Shown here in pieces: positions 4,300 to 62,397 of a DNA stretch of 64,000 nt. Positions within the stretch are counted from its first letter, which is position 1. Each line of letters starts with the position of its first letter. The notes beneath the pieces were generated by a model. It was not told the DNA's origin, ran no database searches, and saw only the letters and a list, made by a program, of their open reading frames with translations. The stretch lies in NCBI RefSeq assembly GCF_018977255.1, contig NW_024704742.1:111912001-111976000 (forward strand), read 5' to 3'. This DNA is from Callorhinchus milii. Lineage: Eukaryota. Made by a program: the position numbers and the translations under genes.

Positions 4300-4624
4300 A
4301 ATAATGATAATCCTTGCATTTGATATTATTATTATCCTTGCATTTGATATAGCGCTTTTCACGTCTTCTAGACGTCTCAAAACGCTTCACAGATATCCTG
4401 TAAAGTTAATTGACTGCATACTTATGGGCGAAACGCGGCAGCCAATTGCGCACAGCAGTGTCCCACAAACAGTCATGGATTGAAGTGACCAATTTTTTTT
4501 CTTGAGGGATTATTATCAGGTGTGTAGAGTACGGAAACTTGCCCAAGGTTTCACTTTGCCAGGAATCGAACTCAGGTCTCTCACTTGCAAGGCGAGTGCT
4601 CTAACCACTAAGCTACAAGACTCC
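4300..4624 (-). mobile_element. tRNA-derived SINE, same family as 6534-6859
   Basis: Colinear similarity to that copy; the terminal tail segment is duplicated (atccttgcatttgata x2). Confidence 0.9.
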
Positions 4625-5180: not shown

Positions 5181-6533
5181 GCGAATAAAGATTTGCATTT
5201 TTATATACTGAAACATTTTTATACTGAAACATCTCAAATCTTCATAAGGAATTACCACCTATTAAGTGTAGTTACTGCTTATGAAGCCAAACACTGCAGC
5301 CTTTGATACCACAAAGATCCCACCATAAGCCACAAGGTGAATGGACAGTTAATCTGAATTTATTCATTAAATACAATGCCCAGGAAGTTGATTGTATTAT
5401 TAATAATAAATTGCCGATTTAATTACAAAGAAAAAATAACTTTTAAAAGTTTTAAACATGTTGATAACCTAACTAAACAGTAATAATGCTGACATTTACT
5501 GATTGAGCTTTATAATTATATTTAGTTAATGTAATATTTTACCAAATTAATACTTTCAACTTTTAAAGACTTGTTGAAGGAACAAGTCATGTTGTTGTTA
5601 ATCCAGTGAGAAGTTTAAAAATGACCCACAATACGGGACATTGATGTCTTTATTTTATTTCCTGTGTTATAATGCACCAAATGTGATTGGCATTTGCATG
5701 GTCTGTCACGTGATAGCTTATCATTGCTGAAAGACACTAGTCAAGTGGTTGCAGCCAAAGCTTTAGGAGGAGAGGGAAATACCCTGAGAGGAAGTCACCA
5801 GCTACAGGAAGGCCTAGAGGGGTCCTGCTGACCCCCGATACCCTGAACTGCTGGTTTCACAACTAATTTCAGCTCTCTTTGCAGCTATTTATATCTGAAC
5901 ACATTTTGACAGAACCAACGGCTGCCTCAGTGATAGCTATTTAATCAGCACCCTCACAGTCTTTGTGCACTGTGACAGATCTCTTTAAAATTAGCGCCAC
6001 AAACTAATAAGTTCCTTTGAGTGCTTTGTCTCTTTGTCTGTTCCATCCTTCACCTTTCGCTTTTTTCAGTCTGGCAGTCAAAATCTGTACTAACAATTCA
6101 GAAGATTATCCAACAGAAAACAATATGAGAGATGGGGCTTTTTACATGAATACAGAATCATGTCCTTTTGCATGAAGACAGAAGGCAGAGTGAAAATAAA
6201 AGTCGTGGGGTTATGGGTTACAGTTCACTGTCTCCAGCCATTTGCCCCAATCCCCCAGCCCTCAAATAGAAACAATCCAGTCAATAGGAACTTTAGCAGT
6301 GCATGACCTGAACCATCCCGTCTTCCCAGTTAAAAAGAAGTCTGTGAACCCCCAGGCAAGTTGGAAAAAAGAAGGTAAAATGCAAACCTAAGGAGCACCA
6401 TATTTAAAAACCTTTGATATGGTTTCTATGCAGCAGATGGTAGTGTTATTCCTTTATAAGGCCAATATAATTTTTGTTTCAAAATATATCAAAAAAATCA
6501 GTGCATCAGAACTGTTATCCATGCAAATCACTC

Positions 6534-6859
6534 AATAATAATAATAATAATAATAATCCTTGCATTGATATAGCGCTTTTCACGTCGGGAGGACGTCCCA
6601 AAGCGCTTCACAGAACACACTGTAAAGTGAATTGACTGTATATTTGTGGGCAAACGCGGCAGCCATTTGCGCACAGCAATGTCCCACAAACAGTCGTAGA
6701 ATTGAAAATGACCAATTTATTATTGTTTTTGGTTTTTGGAGGGATTATTATTAGGCGTGTGGAGTAAGGAAACTTGCCCAAGGTTTCGCCCTGCCTGGAA
6801 TTGAACTCAGGTCTCTCGCTTGCAAAGCGAGTGCTCTAACCACTGAGCTACAGGACTCC
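6534..6859 (-). mobile_element. Full-length tRNA-derived SINE (about 320 bp) with L2-type tail and (ATT)n end
   Basis: Head GGAGTCCTGTAGCTCAGTGGTTAGAGCACTCGCTTTGCAAGCGAGAGACCTGAGTTCAATTCC contains A box, TGC anticodon arm and B box. Body TGTTTGTGGGACATTGCTGTGCGCAAATGGCTGCC; tail GTGAAAAGCGCTATATC. Multiple copies in the window. Confidence 0.92.
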
Positions 6860-7254
6860 TAAATACTCAAATACATTGGCCTCATTATAAGATCAGTTGT
6901 GCTGGATTTCAAACATTAAATTCTACTAGCGTAACACACTGCGACAATATTGGGTTAAAGTTAAATTAAAGTTGTATTCTAATTATGTTCAGGACTATTT
7001 TTCTCCCTTTTCCTCCTCTCTTTTGTCTCCCCTCCTACACACCGCCCACAACTGAGAGTTGGCAGGCTCCTGTTTCCAGGCTGCTGCATGTGTTCTGTAA
7101 CTGATCATTGGTAGCTTCATATGAGTAACTCTGGGATGTGTGTGTGTCACTCTGATTTCTGTTCCTCATGGGTGTGTGGGGGCGGAGTGTAGGGGTGGGG
7201 AGGAGAATAGTGTCTGGATTCTTGTCACCTTCCTACCATTGCAGTTCTTTTTCT

Positions 7255-7580: not shown

Positions 7581-9134
7581 TAGGTAACGCCCAGCCTCTA
7601 TTAGCAATCTCCCCATGATTACTTCCCTGACATCAATAACTCAATGTGTGTGAAATCATGGGCATTACAAACCCACGTCTTTCCACTCTGGAGGACTCTG
7701 AAATGCTGAACATTCTCTGTATGGTGCTTCCATCATGCTGAGAAGCTGAAATGCCAAAAAATTCAGTACCATTAGTGGGAATTGTTTAGATGGTAATGCC
7801 ACCATTTTCTTTCCATTTTCAAGGCTGGGTTGCTGAAACATGAGATAAATTTGTACTCAGCCTGAGATTCCAGAACATCTGCTGCCCATTGCTCTTAACA
7901 GGGAGATTGTTGGGAACTTGGTCTTAGCTTTTAGTGTCACAAATTATTGTGAGATAGACTCTTAAGCCACATTACTATGGACTGCTTAGCTTCTTTGTCA
8001 CTCTCCAACCCAACAACACAATGATTTTAAAGACACAAGTAAATCAAAACATTTTTTAAAAAGTGTTTTAACGAAGAAACTATTATGAGGTCCATGATGC
8101 ACTGATCATTAACAATAATGAGTTTTTTTTAATATTAAGATGGGAAATCCATTGTAAACAGCCCCCCCCAAAAAAAAATTGCTATATTTAGCAAGTGGTA
8201 TGTGGTAGCCCCCATTTAACAACACATTGTACTTATATAGGCCTTTTACGTTGGGAAAGACCAGTTTAACTCACTTGAAATATTGTTGTTAATGAATTGT
8301 CTATAAAAGCCGCAAAACGTGCAATACAAATCATATCTAATATTTCTCTAGGCTATGCACAGCCCGAGCACTGAAATGCTGAACTCCTACTTTATTTGGC
8401 TGTACAAAGCCAAATTAATATTCAGAATTTAATGACTGTACATTTCCAATACTTCAAGGAATATTTTCCTATCTCATCTTATCACAGTGATGTGTGAAAT
8501 TCCGTTGCTCCTGATTGATGATAGGGTTAAAAATATACATTTTAACATTGCTGTGAAATATCATGAGCATCACAGTATTAACACTGTTTAGTTGCACTGG
8601 TATCGGGAATAAAAAGTTACCTAAATTTTAAGCAACACTAAAGTAACATTGATTAATTTGTGTGGTAGGATCACATATAACAGCATAAACCCATCCCAGT
8701 AGCAAATCAGGAAAGTGTGAAGTGCTGGTATTATAAGAGCATAATAAAGAACAACAAGCAACTTCACTCATAAAATATAATAATTGCCACCACAAAACTT
8801 CGAAGAAGAATGCAAGAAAGATTCTCAGCAAGCAAATAAACTTTTTTATAGCAGCAGTATTTTTCTATTATTAAAGCTATTTATCAATATAATTTTTTTA
8901 GAACAGTTTTACCACTATTAAATTATGCTGCTATATACCACAGAAAATGTGTTGTGCTGAAAAGATGTATAAATATTAAATGTTAACAGACGCAGCAGAA
9001 TTTGGATGTGCACCAGTATCTGATTGTTGCAGGCTGCATTTATTCTTTATTCTGCAGCTTCTTTTGGAGGCCCTGAGGGAGTGTAAGAGGCGGGAAGCAG
9101 AACTGAAGCCATTGTGAGGGGAAGAAGTTACATT

Positions 9135-9175
9135 CTTCCTGTTATGACAGGAAATGCAGACAAATGTGCTTCCTG
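9135..9175 (-). promoter_or_regulatory. Core of an endothelial enhancer with a FOX:ETS composite motif; probable orthologue of mouse Mef2c F10/F10-44
   Basis: The minus strand reads CAGGAAGCACATTTGTCTGCATTTCCTGTCATAACAGGAAG: three GGAA ETS cores and an ATAACAGGAA FOX:ETS site. It closely matches the F10-44 sequence as I recall it and lies in the intron upstream of the MADS exon. Confidence 0.8.
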
Positions 9176-10827
9176 ACCATTTACTCGGGAGGGAATGAAC
9201 TCTTCTTTGACCTTTAGCTGAGGCACAGCTTGTTTTTTGTTGCCTTGACAAACATGTTTTTCCATAATGATTCCTAATGCATACCTGTAGACATAATGTG
9301 AAAAAGAAACCAGGAAATATAAATCCTGTTTCACGTAGGTGGTCTTGAGCCATTCTTGGGTAAACTCTTTAAATAGTGCTTTGCAGGATGTCTTGGCTCC
9401 AACATTCAATAGAATTCCACCATGATGTGCTATGTTGGGGAACAACAATATGGATTTTGGAGCAAGGAAACATTTCTAATTAGTAAGAACAAAAACGATG
9501 AAATGATGTCTGCTAAGAGTCACAGAAGTCTAGCTTGTTACTAGTTAATGGTGTAAGGATAGGCTGTTGTGATAGCAAAGAGTTGACCTATTGCCTGTTT
9601 GGTTGTTTGTCCTTGAACAAAACCAGACCTAAACAATTGGTTGCAGTTTCTGAAGGTGTGGACAATATGTTGGCTGCCTGCTTCACAGCACTGACTCCAG
9701 TGTTACTGAGCAAAAGCAGACATTGGATGGATACATCTGAGACACTCAAGTGCATACAAACATACCCAATTATTCAACCAGATTGTACTACTTTCAAAAA
9801 ATTAAAACAGAAAAGGCTAACCACTATCTTTGGACTATGTGACCAGAGGAAAAGTAAATACTCTGTATGATAAACCAACAGGTGAACAAATGTTACATTT
9901 GTAGGCCCTCTACAGCAAAACAATGACAATGCTATTATTCTTTTAATAATAAATAATAATCATTCCATTTGATGGAGCACTTTGTATCACATTGTTGAAC
10001 CATTACAAAACAGAATATTTACTGTGAAGTGTAGTGACTATATTTGTAAGCAAACGGTGATCAGGAACAGATATCAAACGGTTTCAAACTAATGAGTAAA
10101 TATACAAATTGTTTGATGCTGTACATATGTATAATTACAGAGTGCCAAGTGTTTACACAGTACAGTGGTTAACAGCACCAATGCCAATCAGTAGATATAT
10201 AAAGAGATTACGTGAATAAAGTGAACAGATTGTGGTGCTGATTGTGAAAGGAACTTTGTTGCTGTAAACTAGAGAAATATTTTGATATTTAAGAATTGGC
10301 ATGGTGGACCAGAGTTTTGGAGGCTAGGTAAACTATGAAGAAAAGTATACATTTTGGTCATTTGGTCTGGCTATTATATATTTGGGAAGTATAAGAAGTT
10401 TATTGTTGTGGATGATTTGTGAATGTTTGAAGAAGGCAGGAGACCAGGTTTGAATAATGGTGATTTGGAGATGAATCGGACAATCATGAATTAATTTTTG
10501 ATCAACTTTGAGGTTACGGGAGTCTTCATACAGTCCGTTGGGTCTTTTGAGTTACCACTCTGCTTATTTGTAGGATTATTCCTGTTTCCATTCAAATCTG
10601 AAAAGTTAGTTATTGACTGAGAAATCCACAAAGTCTGACTTGCAGGTCAGGTAATTTAGCATTAGATGGATTTATGACTTAAAGTATTATTTAAGTGTTT
10701 AAGATGAATATGTCCGTTTAGTTGTGGTGATTCAGTATTTGTGGTTGCTAGAAACATATCATACTTGAATTAACACTGATTTGTGGTTTATAAACTTTAA
10801 AGCAACTTAGTCCATTTTTTTATACAG

Positions 10828-11138
10828 TCGCTCAAGGTGCGAAACCTTGGGCAAGTATCCTTACTCTACACACCTAATACCTTCAAAACAAAAAAATAAT
10901 AAATTGGTCATTTTCAATCCACGACTGTTTGTGGGACACTACTGTGCGCAATTATGCACTTTGAGACGTCTAAAAGACATGAAAAGCACTATATCAAATG
11001 CAAGGATTATTATTATTAATTGGCTGCCACATTTCGCCCACAAATATACTGTCAATTCACTTTACAGCATATTCTGTGAAGTGCTTTGAGACGTCTAGAA
11101 GACGTGAAAAGCGCTATATCAAATGCAAGGATTATTAT
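10828..11138 (+). mobile_element. 5'-truncated tRNA-SINE carrying an internal insertion of its own 3' tail
   Basis: The SINE body is split at gcgcAATT|ggctgcc by an extra tail of about 65 bp. Confidence 0.85.
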
Positions 11139-11394
11139 AAGGTGCTATAGAGCTATAAATCTCAAAGTGCTTCACAGGACTTACTGTAAAGTGTAGTGAC
11201 TACGTATTTGTAGGCAACTGAGCTCATGCCATCAAGCCTGAAGCTGATGCACTGTTGGCAGCAGAACATGGACTCTTATTCTTTGATGAGTTTAAGACCG
11301 TTTTCTATTCCGAGGCTTTTTTTCACTTGTAAAGGAGTAGCATAAGGCCTGGTGTGCAAAATTGATTTACAAAACTGCACATTTTAAAGGAAAA

Positions 11395-16828: not shown

Positions 16829-17185
<357 letters not shown>

Positions 17186-31496: not shown

Positions 31497-33129
31497 TACA
31501 CTGTTTGCAATGTGTTAGTTCTCCAGGATACTCAATGACACTTTGATTTTACTGAGCACTGTATGGTTTATTTTCTGAATTGCTTTTGACAAATGGACCT
31601 TCCCACTTTTATGGCAGGGAGAGAGAGACAACTGTAGAGATAGTAGTTCCTTCCACCATGCTGAAGGCAGATGGGTGACTTATTGTACTGAAGAGTTTCC
31701 TATACCCATGGACCTGTATTCAGGATGGCTCAACTTCAGGAAATCGAGCAAAAATATTTGGTTCAAATAATAAAAGTTTGTGATTTTATTTTTTCTCTAA
31801 TTTCTCAATTAACGACCACCTACATCATCAGCACATCAGTGTAAGAGTGGGCAAATATATTATGTTGCTGCACCACTCCTGCCTTTCAACTGTGGCTTTT
31901 CACGTCAAATGAATTCAAAATACTTTTAGTTACTTTTATTCATTTGGATTTATGTGTGTGAAAAAAAATCTCTCAACACTCACGCAGCATCTGTGCAGCC
32001 TATTTTAGTGGCATAGTGCTGGACTACTCCATGAGATAAAACTCTCTGTTGCAACATGCTCCATCTAGAGGCCCAACTGAGATGTGCCAAACCTCAAACC
32101 TGTGACCTCTGCGGAGTAGAGCAAGCATTCTCACTACCACTACACCACAGCAATCATCAGCCTCACCTTTAATATTTTTTCCCCCCAGTATATATTTCCA
32201 TTTACTTCAGATAAATATAAAAAAGGTCCATTGCTGGAGTGAGTGGCAATTTATAGATTGATGCTTTTTTAAAATCTTACTACCAAATGAAATTATGTTT
32301 GACTCATTAGTTGTAAACTAAATCACAATTCCAGGAATACTCCTTGGATTAATTTGGCCATCTGTAGTTTTTAGTTTCTTTTTGGCATCAAAGAGGAATT
32401 ACTTATTTGAAGCCAAATTTTTACAGTGGAAAAACTGTCCCATGTCAAACCTTTCCTTTATTGTTCAATGCATGAAATAAAGGTATCGTACCAAGTAAGA
32501 CGAATTAGAAGTAAAGATATCACATAAAATAAAGGTATTGAATGCCAAATTATTGTTTGCATTATGATAGGCCACAGAAGCTATGATATATGGATAATAC
32601 CTAGTTTATTTGTAACAAGGAATGATGCTTTGGACAGTCATTTCTCTCTCCATGTTTTATTGTGGATTCCAGTATGTTTTCAGTTCACTCCACATTACCT
32701 AACATTGTTAGCTATGCACATGACCGATGGAATAAAAAAAATCCAAATTTAATGAGAGCTATTACAGGCTGAACAGTAAAAGCTTCAGTGGTATTAGTCC
32801 ACAAATGATTAGCTTCCCAGTATTCTGACAATTGTAATAATAAAGTCTTAAATCATGTGGCACGTAGTAGTCTGACTAATCTCTAAATCTTGTCAGTTGA
32901 GACTGGGATGTTTAGTCTAGTTAAGCATTTCGCAGATGCCTATTCTGAATTTCCGTTATGTAAGTGTTCAATAAAGGGGCCTTCTTTAATGGAAACGTGC
33001 TTGGCAAATGTTTGTTTTGGGTATTACAGAGAAGACCCAGAAAATAGAGCAGTGTTGTTTCATCATACTGTCATGTCAAAGTGAGGAAGAACACATACAT
33101 CGCTGTGTTCTGTGATTCAAGATATCTAG

Positions 33130-35770
33130 GACACCATTTGCCCGATCTTCCTACTCCTCTGGCTCTTTCCCCTCTTTCGAGCACCTCACCCTCTCCCACC
33201 CCTCCTTCCTCTCGCTCAAAATCCTCCACCACTACTGGCCCCCCAAAACCTCTCCCACCTTCATCTCCGATATTTCGACACTTCTTACATCTCTCTGCCT
33301 CTGCTCTGATCGCCTCGTCATCCTGGGCGACTTCAACCTGCACTTCACCCCCTCCCGCTCCATCTCCTCAGACTTCTCTTCCATGCTCTCCTCGCTCAAC
33401 CTCTCCCTCCACATCAACTCCCCCACTCACAGTCACGGCCACCTACTCGACTTGGTGATCACCCGGAGCCTCAGTGTCTCGGATGTCACTATCACCGACA
33501 AGGCCGTCTCTGATCACCACTTCATCTCCTTCACCACCTCCACCCCCCTGAAGGAGTCCTCTGAACTCCTCTCCCTCTGGCCCTCAACCCTCACTGACCC
33601 CTCTTCTCCTCTCACCCTCCTCCACAACACCCTCTCCTCCACACTCGATACTCTTGCCCCCATCACCTCCCGTACTGTCTCCTACTCTCGCTCCTCCCCC
33701 TGGTTCACCACCCACCTCCGCTCACTGAAAAGCCAGGTGCGGGCCGCTGAACGCACCTGCGTCAAATCTGGCCTAACGGTCCACCGACAAATCTGGCTGG
33801 ACCTCCTCAAAATCTACCGCTCCACTCCAGCCTCGGCCAAGTCGTCCTTCTACTCCAGGACAACCCCAGGCTACCGTTTTCTACCACATCCTGACTCCTC
33901 CGTCCCCCCCGCCACCCCGCGCAGGTCATCTCCTCCAACCTTCACTGCGAGGAGATGCTGGATTTCCTTGAATCCCAAATCAAGGGAATTCGCTCCGCGG
34001 TCACTTCCCCTCTAACATCCACCCACCCCCTCCCTCCCACACTCCGACTCCTACCCATCCTCTCCTACACACTTTCGTACCCGTTTCCCCACCCTCTGTC
34101 ACCAAACTCATCCTATCCCTGAAACCCACCACCTGCTCCCTTGAACCCATCCCCACTCCACTCCTTATCTCCCAGCTCCACCTCCTTGCCCCACATATCA
34201 CAGACATCGTCAACCTGTCCCTCTCCTCTGGCTCTGTTCCCATTCCCTTAAAAACTGCCACCATCACTCCCACCTTGAAAAAACCCTCCCTTGATGCGTC
34301 GCAGCTGTCAAGCTACCGGCCCATCTCCAACCTCCCCTTCCTGTCCAAGGTCCTGGAACGAGTTGTCACCTCCCAACTGCGCTCTTTCCTCTCCACCAAT
34401 TCATTATTCGAACCCCTTCAGTCGGGTTTCCGTGCTGCCAATAGCATAGAAACTGCCCTGGTCAAGGTCACCAATGACATCCTGACCATCTGTGACCAGG
34501 GCTCCCTCTGCCTCCTCGTCCTCCTCGACCTATCGGCAGCATTCGATACGGTCGACCACGCTATCCTCCTCCACCGCTTGTCCTCCCACCTCAACCTTCA
34601 AGGCCCTGTCCTTGAGTGGTTTAGGTCCTACCTCTCCCACCGTCTTCACTTTGTTTCCACGAATGGCTTTTCCTCCAGCCCCCGCACTGTGTCGTGCGGT
34701 GTCCCTCAGGGCTCTGTCCTCGGTCCCCTCCTCTTCACCCTCTATATGCTCCCCCTTGGTGACATCATCCGCAGACATGGGGTTAACTTCCACATGTATG
34801 CGGATGACACCCAACTCTACCTTTCCTCCTTTACCCTCAACTCCACGACCACCGATGTCCTGACAGCTGCCTGTCCGACATCGAGTCCTGGACGAGAGAC
34901 AACATTCTTCAGCTCAACGTGCGCAAAACTGAGGCCCTCCTGATTGGCTCTCGTCTGCATCAGCATCCAAGGCTGCACTCTCCACCTCTCAAAGCCAGTC
35001 AGGAACCTCGGTGTTCTGTTCGACCCTGAGCTGTCCTTTCTTCCTCATATCCGCACCACAACTGGCACCGCCTTCCATCACCTCCGGAACATCGCCAGAC
35101 TACGGCACTACCTCACCCCTCACGCTGCTGAAACTCTGGTCCACGCCTTTATCACCTCAAGGCTGGACTATGGGAACTCTCTCCTCGCCGGCCTTCCCAC
35201 CACCTCCCTCCACAAGCTGCAGGTCATTCAGAACTCTGCAGCTCGTGTACTGTCCCGCACCAGGCTTCGCGACCACATCACTCCCACCCTCGCTCGCCTC
35301 CACTGGCTCCCCATCCCCCAGAGGATCGAATTCAAGATCCTCATCCTCACCTACAAGGCCATTCACGGCCTTGCTCCCTCCTACCTCTCTGACCTACTAT
35401 CCCCCTACCTACCTGCCCGTACCCTCCGTTCCTCTGGCTCCGGTCTGCTCCATATCCCCCGTCCCAACCGCCCTACCATCAGTGGCCGGGCCTTCAGCCT
35501 CTCAGCCCCCAGGCTCTGGAACTCTATCCCCCAGTGCCTTCGCCGCCTCCTCCCTTTCCTCCTTCAAGGCCGGTCTCAAGACCTTTCTCTTTGACCGTGC
35601 CTTCAGCTCCCCTCTCGACTCTCTACCCCCTCCTCGCTCCCTCCCTTCCCTCCCCTCACCCTGACCATTTCCCCCCTGCTCGGGTCCCAACCCAACTGTA
35701 CAGCGCCTTGGGACGTCCTCCCGACGTGAAAGGCGCTCTATAAATGGAATCTTGTTGTTGTTGTTGTTGT
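33130..35770 (+). mobile_element. L2-clade LINE, 5'-truncated and frameshifted ORF2 (APE endonuclease end plus reverse transcriptase), with 3' stem-loop and (TTG)n tail
   Basis: Motifs [94 protein letters not shown]. Split across several frames. Ends GTGAAAGGCGCTCTATAAATGGAATC(TTG)n. Confidence 0.95.
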
Positions 35771-36439
35771 AAACAGAGAAAGATTTGCCAAACACTGTAG
35801 AACACTTCAAAAATTGCTTGGATTCAAGTGCTCTGGGACTCTACCTTGCATGAGGTGCACTATATAAATGCAAGTTGTTGTTATTATTTAAGTTACACTG
35901 TTAAAATCTTTTTACTGATCCACGATGTTTATGTGATGTGAGACTCTGTGCACTCGCACACTGATAACTTTGATCCTAAAATGTATAGAGAATATCAAAC
36001 TCTTTGTATGGTAACAGACATTAGAAATTCTAGCCTCGCAATATCTGCACTTATAAATTTACCCCATTCTAAACCTACACTACAGGCATTTTGCTATGGA
36101 TGAAACCAGGAATTCTGGAAACGGAAATATGAATAGAAAATGCTGGAAATGCATTGGTTTTGTTTATACTGTATATACTGGGTTGGTTCATAAAAATAAT
36201 GGTCTTAAAGGAGCCTGGGTGACAGACATAATTTCTTTGTTTGTTGTAGCTCAAACATATCTCACACGTTTTGGCCATGAAAGATTATCGTTCCCATGTT
36301 TGCATCAATCTTAGTGTCTTTCACTCAGATTAATACAATTTTGCATCCAGTTTGCAAATATCACATTTTAAACCTTCTAAAATAAGGATGTTTTAGCTAA
36401 GAATTTGCAAGTTAATATGGAGGTTTAATGTAACCCATC

Positions 36440-42714: not shown

Positions 42715-42858
42715 ACGTTGAGAAAGAAGGGACTAAATGGCTGTGACAGCCCAGACCCAGAAGCAGACGATTCAGTGGGTCACAGCCCTGAGTCTGACGA
42801 GAAGTGCAGAAAAATAAATGAAGATATTGATCTAATGATCAGCAGGCAAAGATTGTGT
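42715..42858 (+). CDS. MEF2C: MEF2C alternative exon alpha1 ([48 protein letters not shown])
   Basis: tttcag|ACG acceptor and TGT|gtaagt donor. 144 bp, 48 aa. The '[10 protein letters not shown]...[15 protein letters not shown]' sequence is characteristic of MEF2C alpha1. Confidence 0.97.
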
Positions 42859-42914: not shown

Positions 42915-43052
42915 GCATTGAACAAGAAGGAAAACAAAGGCTGTGACAGCCCTGATCCTGACTCCTCTTACGCTCTTACCCCACGCACTGAAGAAAAATA
43001 CAAAAAAATTAATGAAGAGTTTGATAATATGATAAGGAATCATAAAATACCT
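42915..43052 (+). CDS. MEF2C: MEF2C alternative exon alpha2 (ALNKKENKGCDSPDPDSSYALTPRTEEKYKKINEEFDNMIRNHKIP); muscle-type, mutually exclusive with alpha1
   Basis: ggcag|GCA acceptor and CCT|gtaagt donor. 138 bp, 46 aa, translated by hand (absent from the ORF track). Paralogous to alpha1, same phase. Confidence 0.96.
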
Positions 43053-45092: not shown

Positions 45093-45804
45093 TCTTTATC
45101 TTTAAGCAAGTTGTAATATTTCTAATAGTTAAACAGAGGACACTTCCATTTTATCTCAAATTTGCGGCCGTTACATTACAGAACAATCATGGTACCTGTA
45201 CTCCAAAGGGTTAAAGCTTACTGCTCGCTGTAGTGCGTCAAGCTGCATGAAATCCTGTTGATGAAATTCAAACACGTTTGTGTGCTGGGGTGAATTAACA
45301 GGATTACAAAAATTGCTTTGCGTCCCGTCAAGAACATTTATTCTCCTGCCTTAACATTAAGCTACTTTGTTGACAACTAAAGCAAAGCCTCAACACTCAC
45401 AGTCTTTCATATGCCTCGCCAGAACTCTGAGAGAAATAACATAACTATTGCATGTGCTTACTGTTGCATGAATAACTAGCTCACCAATGTGATCACTTGT
45501 AATACTGTACAGTGCACTATATCAGGTTTTCTTTATTTTTCAACTGTGCTTGTGTTTATGAAAATGGATACAATCGTCTTTCTTCCTAACATACCATTAG
45601 CACTGTTATTGTAAAGACTTCAATTGGTTATTTTTGTCCATAATTCAACAAGGGCATGAACGGATAAGTTTNAAAAAAACCTTCAAAGCGTTTCAAATTT
45701 TTGCAAAATTCAATTGACATTCACTGAAAAATAAATAAAATGTTTGTTGCAGTCTCCAGCTTCTGCTAGTGACAGTTCAGCTTGTGGTCAGTGTGGTTAA
45801 AGAC

Positions 45805-49402: not shown

Positions 49403-49586
49403 GCTGTTCCACCACCGAACTTTGAGATGCCAGTTTCGATCCCTGTGTCCAACCAGAACAACCTGGTCTACAGTAATCCAGGCTCCCTGGGCAACCACAA
49501 CCTAATGCCAATGGCTCACCCCTCTATGCAGAGGAACAGCATGTCTCCTGGAGTAACACAGAGGCCACCGAGTGCAGGAAACGCAG
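49403..49586 (+). CDS. MEF2C: MEF2C exon ([62 protein letters not shown])
   Basis: Long pyrimidine tract plus catag|GCT acceptor and G|gtagga donor. 184 bp, phase 0/1. Matches the MEF2C transactivation region. Confidence 0.96.
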
Positions 49587-61032: not shown

Positions 61033-62397
61033 ACATGGCTGATACTAGGTCACAGTGTCGGGAACCATAAGATACAAGTCCAAGTTGTACACTGTCACAC
61101 AATATATTCGACAAATCTATTGTATAGTTGTGCTTTACTATGTGGAATAGAACATTGAGATCATACTAGACCACAAAAAAAAACACATGATCTGATAAGC
61201 CACATCAGTAGACATGTATATCTATTCCAGTGATTGAAACTGATTTTTTTCCCCCAAGAAAGAAAAAGTATATTTGCATCTTATTGTCTTGACCAAATGA
61301 TCGTCCAGATTAATGGTGAGTAAGATTTAGAAAAATACTTTTTATTCAATGCTTTTCCTCCCTCCGCCCATCATTGCTATCAGATATTGTAGCTATAATT
61401 TATGCAGAAAGAAAACAACATTACATTCATTTTTTTACAAATTTTGTGTCTAGAAAAGGTTTAGATGGCAATTCCTCCACTAGTCAGTAAATGTATGGAG
61501 CATGGTGATTTGAGTTTATAATGGGATTTACCAACGACTAGAAAATAATCCACTTTCGTTTATTCTCAATCTTGCATTTTAGTAAAATAAATTCCCTGTT
61601 ATGTTTCCCAGAGGCTTGTGAGCAGAGTTTTTTTAAACCCTGTCAGTTGCAGAATATTTCCAAACTGAAAAATCAACACTTCTGCTGATGGATGTTTTTG
61701 GTGAGAAAGGAGAATAGTTCTTTTGTGTTGTGTGCCCACACCCAATCACATAGGGTCTTCACAGCCCAAAACAAGAGGGTAATTTCATCTCATCCATTCC
61801 AACAGGATCCAAATCTAATACCGCACTGTGATACCCAGTCCTTTTTTAGAGGGTGGGGGCGAGGGAGGAAGCATGGTATCAAAAGGATTGTACTTCATCT
61901 AGTGCCTATGTAATGTACACAAAGTTTGCTTTTGTTGCATTCCTGATGCTTATATTTACTTTGTTTTATTTGATCTCAACTCCTTGCATGTGCTACTCAT
62001 CTTTTGTTCCATCTGTTAGCTCTCTGCTTTGATTCTTAGCATGTGCTATCTTCTTTACCCTTAACAATATATGTGAATGTTGTAGATGTTGGAGGGGGCG
62101 AGAAAAGTGGAGAATAGTATAAATAAAATAAATAAATAATCCTTACATTTGGTTTGGCCCCTTTCATGTCAGGAGGATGTCTCAACTGCTTCAAAGAAGT
62201 TACTGTTAAGGGCAATGAGTGTGTATTTTGTAGGTGAATGATAACAAAACAGATAGAAATAAAGCAAAAGAAAGTTAAGAAAAAATGATCGTTGATGAAA
62301 GATTAGCAGAAAAGAGCATAAAATGTTAAATAATACAAGAAAAGATATGAGGATACAAAACAGACAACAGCTTGAACTTATGTAGCACAAATGTATC

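Follow-up and report, generated by a model that had tools for sequence, protein, structure and literature searches.

A putative ortholog of the Mef2c F10 endothelial enhancer in the first coding intron of Callorhinchus milii MEF2C

We analysed a stretch of 64,000 nucleotides of Callorhinchus milii DNA (the window), which covers the central part of a plus-strand MEF2 gene. Over the exon at 49403-49585 the identity to C. milii MEF2C is 100%; the named matches that follow come from sharks and rays (84-94%), and among the 120 matches listed for this exon the named ones are only MEF2C/mef2cb or unspecified MADS-box or hypothetical proteins. Further exons of C. milii MEF2C isoforms are found on the plus strand at 42915-43052 and at 61258-61317 (20 residues, isoform X2). 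An earlier interpretation made from the letters of the window (the sequence-only reading) had named Mef2c as the host gene, and the exon matches to C. milii MEF2C isoforms bear this out; the gene is not a paralog. The first coding exon of MEF2C (residues 1-18) has no match within the 64-kb window, which places the element described below in the intron that separates coding exons 1 and 2, with exon 2 following 7.7 kb downstream.

Both alternative MEF2C alpha exons are present in the window (42715-42858 and 42915-43052), where they have AG/GT ends and are separated by a 56-nt intron. Of the two, only the second is used in the three full-length C. milii MEF2C isoforms that were inspected. The 20-residue exon at 61258-61317 is found in isoform X2 (P0006) and is absent from the nine other MEF2C proteins compared; it is possibly lineage-specific or mis-predicted. 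Concerning repeats, about 18% of the window is repeat-like. A tRNA-headed SINE family has several copies, including those at 6533-6867 and 10839-11141, with an Rfam tRNA match at 6786-6857, and at 33048-35886 we recognised by eye a broken LINE whose frames resemble endonuclease and reverse transcriptase.

The 44-bp mouse Mef2c ETS-FOX oligo of De Val et al. 2008 (F10-44) is printed in the methods of PMC5295818; the mouse element is known here via excerpts of PMC5295818, PMC9726828, PMC10952167 and PMC11896612. Compared by eye, 40 of its 44 positions are the same in the 43 bp at 9133-9175 on the minus strand, where two blocks are identical to the oligo: 18 nt at 9158-9175 and 21 nt at 9134-9154. 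The mismatches are the spacer between these blocks (3 nt, against 4 nt in mouse) and the final base of the oligo. The 41-mer quoted in the sequence-only reading is found without a single change on the minus strand between 9175 and 9135, and its identity with mouse F10-44 is upheld by this match, in which all three ETS cores and the forkhead half are identical. Based on order 0-4 models of the window sequence, the 18-nt and 21-nt blocks are jointly expected by chance 9e-18 to 3e-16 times per window. Also, in a text search of approximately 8.4 million papers a 13-letter piece of the core matched only PMC5295818, as the mouse Mef2c ETS-FOX oligo. Judged by these letters and the alignments presented below, the stretch 9063-9288 is almost certainly the C. 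milii ortholog of the Mef2c F10 endothelial enhancer. The features of the locus are listed in Table 1.

Table 1. Coordinates of the MEF2C exon, the predicted enhancer and its motifs in the window
Feature	Position	Strand	Remarks
MEF2C second coding exon (MADS/MEF2 domain)	16865..17068	+	tblastn with C. milii MEF2C; AG/GT ends
Enhancer body (Mef2c F10 core ortholog, predicted), non-coding	~9063..9288	.	Alignments with L002 and organisms D and E
F10-44 ortholog (predicted)	9133..9175	-	43 bp (mouse 44 bp); ungapped 42/43 to L002, 40/43 to L001
SOX-like CATTGT	9110..9115	+	6/6 in L002, absent there in L001; module membership uncertain
FOX:ETS composite motif, non-canonical forkhead half abutting GGAA	9135..9147	-	Identical in mouse, L001 and L002
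Middle ETS core, opposite strand	9148..9154	+	Identical in mouse, L001 and L002
3-nt spacer	9155..9157	.	Same length in window, L001 and L002 (mouse 4 nt)
SMAD-binding-element-like CAGAC	9157..9161	+	In window and L002, not in L001
E-box CANNTG adjoining distal ETS core	9161..9166	.	In window, L002, L001 and mouse oligo; predicted site
Distal ETS core	9169..9175	-	Identical in mouse, L001 and L002
Nuclear-receptor half-site AGGTCA, NR2F2/COUP-TFII type	9208..9213	-	In window and L002

The 21-nt block was found in metagenome contigs at three loci (L001, L002 and L003). L002 contains a MEF2 first coding exon at 4315-4368, and its copy of the element lies 5.6 kb downstream of this exon, on the same strand. 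L001 retains the core alone (62-92 bp; 88.7% identity over 62 bp). Our impression from compactness, repeats and alignable length is that L002 is bird- or reptile-like and L001 teleost-like. L003 was rejected as an ortholog and attributed to chance: it has the 21-mer and a few further bases (27/43 over the element), without the distal ETS block and without a MEF2 exon, and it is excluded from all conservation statements. At L003 3078-3139 the chance 21-mer is surrounded by several ETS-like CTTCCTGTT copies, in DNA that is otherwise unrelated.

Of 24 sequencing runs listed, 18 contain part of 8900-9700, and the alignments come from four of these 18, with 40 of 147 substitution rows and 12 of 56 indel rows listed; runs X4-X9 and X11-X13, with small word shares, were left out of the comparison. 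Four runs of organism A contain 89-93% of the words of 8900-9700. Most of the region is aligned at roughly 90-95% in organisms B and C; a single 6-kb contig of organism C spans 8541-9710 unbroken, and in organism B none of the 19 of 26 substitutions listed for the covering contig falls in 9085-9198. For organisms D and E the alignment is confined to 9066-9285 (16 substitutions) and 9071-9288 (15 substitutions), respectively, with one gap each, and their flanks are unlike those of the window. Against L002, 9063-9227 shows 86.5% identity over 171 bp (E 2e-51), including a 49-bp identical run. All 30 positions of 9140-9169 are kept, and the conservation peak is centred on the FOX:ETS motif and the ETS cores. 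The resulting block of approximately 226 bp is similar in size to the published core regions of F10 (297 bp in mouse, 274 bp in human). The 44-mer makes up only a fifth of it, leaving room for other constraints.

The sequence-only reading had set wider limits, 9100-9475. This interval holds the F10-44 core, but its right half (about 9290-9475) lies outside the conserved block. The ETS cores claimed near 9310 and 9382 are present (CCAGGAAAT at 9310-9318 and GCAGGATGT at 9383-9391) but unconserved, and both were rejected as parts of the module: they are kept at 6/9 and 5/9 positions in L002, respectively, and lie outside the block aligned in D and E. The loose ends of D and E beyond 9285, inspected by eye, are also without the ETS core of 9310-9318. 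A loose FOX:ETS-like site at 9323-9331 was rejected in the same way (5/9 in L002). Motifs of these kinds are common: CAGGA[AT]R has 64 copies in the 64-kb window, one per kb, so that the outer ETS motifs alone are not beyond chance, and neither is CATTGT alone, the SOX-like 6-mer pattern having 215 copies.

A second non-coding element is common to the window (5759-5897) and L002 (8976-9112), with 69% identity over 140 bp (E ~1e-11) and in the same order. It contains a CAGGAAG ETS core and a TAAT-containing run common to both. One possibility is that it corresponds to a further conserved part of the mouse F10 fragment, e.g. the neural-crest part.

Concerning the motifs inside the block, we take CAGAC at 9157-9161 to be of SMAD type and AGGTCA at 9208-9213 to be of NR2F2 type. 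The AGAC of the former is also found in the mouse oligo; the half-site of the latter adjoins the distal ETS core in L001, instead of the 9208-9213 position. The FOX:ETS motif and the distal ETS core are the two sites changed in the blunted mouse mutant oligo (PMC5295818, methods and excerpts). In a table of PMC11896612, mammalian F10 is given as venous, with strongly conserved ETS, FOXO, FOX:ETS, SMAD and NR2F2 motifs, and the excerpts of that paper report an NR2F2 binding peak at mammalian F10 in addition to the motif. The SMAD-type and NR2F2-type sites, which the sequence-only reading did not mention, would fit the venous bias of F10. Among the features of venous enhancers (ETS, SMAD and NR2F2 motifs, no SOXF), the SMAD and NR2F2 motifs are conserved between the window and L002; a SOXF absence, which is expected of a vein-biased enhancer, was not found in the block, where CATTGT lies at 9110-9115 and is kept in L002. 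This SOX-like site had been pointed out in the sequence-only reading; it is indeed present, but it is absent in L001, and mammalian F10 is reported without a SOXF motif in the source table and text excerpts of PMC11896612.

The chimaera and mouse elements share identical FOX:ETS and other two ETS cores and an intronic position in MEF2C. They differ in the spacer (3 nt in the chimaera, 4 nt in mouse), in one end base and in the SOX-like site, which lies 18 bp away in the chimaera and has no SOXF counterpart in mammalian F10. The distal ETS offset is 14 in the window, L001 and L002 alike, which corresponds to a 3-nt spacer in all three. The different spacer of the sequence-only reading thus stands with respect to mouse but is no trait of the lineage, since L001 and L002 also have 3 nt. 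As these two divergent loci carry the spacer of the window, mouse appears as the outlier among the four sequences compared (window, L001, L002 and mouse), and 3 nt is probably the ancestral state. For the single inserted nucleotide of D and E, the spacer is one possible place and the site following 9115, at which L002 is one base longer, is another. The length of the spacer is probably not critical, because the mouse element drives endothelial expression in zebrafish (excerpts of PMC9125237 and PMC9726828). A more far-reaching view is that the chimaera has kept an ancestral F10 grammar (FOX:ETS, two ETS cores, SMAD, NR2F2, 3-nt spacer and SOXF-type site), from which the mouse lineage gained a spacer base and mammals lost the SOX site, with a shift from broad to venous activity. 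We regard this as improbable, with a small chance of being right; if true, a swap of chimaera and mouse F10 would show one site rewiring artery-vein specificity across ~450 Myr.

The study of De Val and colleagues from 2008 is said to describe conservation of F10 as reaching zebrafish. The claim of a syntenic intron is also upheld: in L002 the MEF2 first coding exon lies upstream of the element and on the same strand, as noted above. 'Intron 4-5' of mouse Mef2c is presumably the intron after the first coding exon. The excerpts of PMC9125237 place mouse F10 in this 'intron 4-5', and those of PMC10952167 place it at +79 kb from the start site. A cartilaginous-fish host, and with it an origin in the jawed-vertebrate ancestor, had been put forward conditionally in the sequence-only reading; both are supported by the identity with C. 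milii MEF2C, the identity with F10-44 and the syntenic intron. Together, these lines of evidence and the cartilaginous-fish host support an enhancer that would be at least as old as the jawed-vertebrate ancestor (~450 Myr, PMC3964593, excerpts).

The published data on function concern the mouse element and are cited from excerpts. The mouse 44-mer is enough to drive endothelial expression, and Foxc2 together with Etv2 activates it 40-fold (PMC9726828), while mutations of the FOX:ETS and distal ETS sites blunt the element in endothelial cells (PMC5295818). Binding and mutation data for ETS and FOXC/O factors are available for mouse F10, which is pan-endothelial at E9.5 and venous at E11.5 (PMC10952167, PMC5295818). 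A longer mouse fragment also has some blood-cell activity (Zhou 2017, PMC5295818). In C. milii, FOXC2 is annotated; the literature searched holds no relevant report on ETV2 in this species. In the working that we propose, an ETS factor (ETV2 early, ERG/FLI1/ETS1 later) would bind the GGAA of the FOX:ETS motif, and a FOXC or FOXO factor would join on the abutting non-canonical forkhead half. The two further ETS cores would raise occupancy, and the complex would switch on the MEF2C promoter, which lies upstream, in endothelial cells. Through the SMAD-type and NR2F2-type sites, activity may later be tilted towards veins.

This motif class is known from other loci. The FOX:ETS endothelial enhancers of ECE1, FLT4, FOXP1, NRP1, PDGFRB, NOTCH4 and Flk1 (PMC10952167, excerpts) also combine the composite motif with ETS cores in an intronic conserved block; they are separate loci that have the motif class alone in common, whereas the chimaera element would be the ortholog of the founding member. 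The vein enhancers Ephb4-2 and CoupTFII-965 (PMC6349860, excerpts) have a grammar of ETS and SMAD elements as in F10, and F10 is grouped with them as vein-enriched in the excerpts of PMC11896612. SMAD elements are needed by these other vein enhancers and their SMAD dependence is demonstrated (PMC6349860), whereas the excerpts report no such dependence for F10. Taken as a whole, we consider it very likely that the element is an F10 ortholog which was inherited in place from the jawed-vertebrate ancestor and works most likely as in mouse. By analogy with mouse, the chimaera copy would very probably be active in chimaera endothelium. Its target is MEF2C with still higher probability. A venous bias of the chimaera copy is more doubtful, and we suggest it tentatively.

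The best-surviving alternative accepts the orthology and holds that what chiefly preserves the block is a different or further role (in blood, neural crest or neurons, or as general ETS-driven activity), the endothelial activity being minor or gained later in bony vertebrates. Approximately 180 bp outside the 44-mer are still 87-93% conserved, ETS, E-box and SOX-like sites serve other lineages as well, the mouse fragment has the blood-cell activity mentioned above, and a neural-crest driver, Mef2c-F10N, exists. Against this, conservation is highest on the FOX:ETS motif and the ETS cores (30/30 at 9140-9169), the core is the only part which L001 retains (62-92 bp), and endothelial expression reportedly needs no more of the mouse element than the 44-mer (PMC9726828, excerpts). 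We consider this alternative unlikely. Far less probable still is a transcribed element (an alternative exon or a non-coding RNA), or a regulator of some gene that is not MEF2C. MEF2C loci do have alternative exons and numerous conserved elements, and on the minus strand the region is crossed by two stop-to-stop frames of 115-130 codons. However, the block has no Rfam match (the search of 5-11 kb gave only the tRNA-like match at 6786-6857 and a weak one, E 0.79), none of the MEF2C isoforms tested aligns to it, and the 1-nt indels between the window and L002, mouse and organisms D and E argue against coding. That the mouse match results from chance, convergence of short ETS motifs or contamination is taken as refuted: L003 shows that the 21-nt block can arise in unrelated DNA (~0.1-3.5 chance matches expected for plausible collection sizes), but both blocks, the flanks, the synteny and the second conserved element agree, and the runs of organism A and the unbroken contig of organism C cover the region as described above. 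The preferred reading remains that of an F10 ortholog with endothelial activity.

The block was likely already catalogued, without a label, in 2014. Supplementary Table IV.1 of Venkatesh et al. 2014 (PMC3964593) lists C. milii gnathostome elements, among them a probable counterpart, scaffold_27.162 (306 bp); the table gives coordinates only, without a gene or enhancer label. Scaffold_27 has synteny with human chr5 and chicken Z; on it, a mir-9 gene and the gene next to it are 50 kb apart. One offset range fits 11 listed elements into the window clear of repeats and exons, and scaffold_27.162 then covers the element; support for this mapping is moderate. The offset test gave 664 of 119,400 offsets, with a weak control, as 59 of 300 shuffled lists passed the first two of three criteria; under stricter criteria chosen afterwards, 29/200 and 5/200 shuffled lists passed (5/200 for all three). 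The plus orientation also allowed a zero-overlap offset elsewhere. Under the mapping used here, the element at 5759-5897 is missing from the table. In the MEF2C enhancer literature, as far as its excerpts go and with the species alignment of De Val 2008 outside the search, no F10 element of elephant shark or Callorhinchus was found; the excerpts of PMC9292287, PMC3595034 and PMC6265484 mention MEF2C or elephant shark without this element.

The same mapping bears on a further stretch of the gene. At 45252-45304 two FOX:ETS-like motifs lie on opposite strands, 34 bp apart (two of the seven strict matches in 64 kb), and this pair falls in the stretch mapped to the catalogued conserved element 45237-45672. 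It is a candidate for a further endothelial element of MEF2C.

The sequence-only reading overstated the novelty of the element, because F10 has been described as highly conserved and the block is probably in the 2014 catalogue. The finding extends a known result by one deep branch. Such conservation is expected and will be of little surprise to specialists, as deep conservation of developmental enhancers is the rule in elephant shark (63,877 conserved elements catalogued, PMC3964593, excerpts). It puts the origin of the founding FOX:ETS endothelial enhancer, with almost the same bases, before cartilaginous and bony vertebrates separated, and the natural variant of the chimaera, with its 3-nt spacer and SOX-like site, is useful for finding which parts of the enhancer matter.
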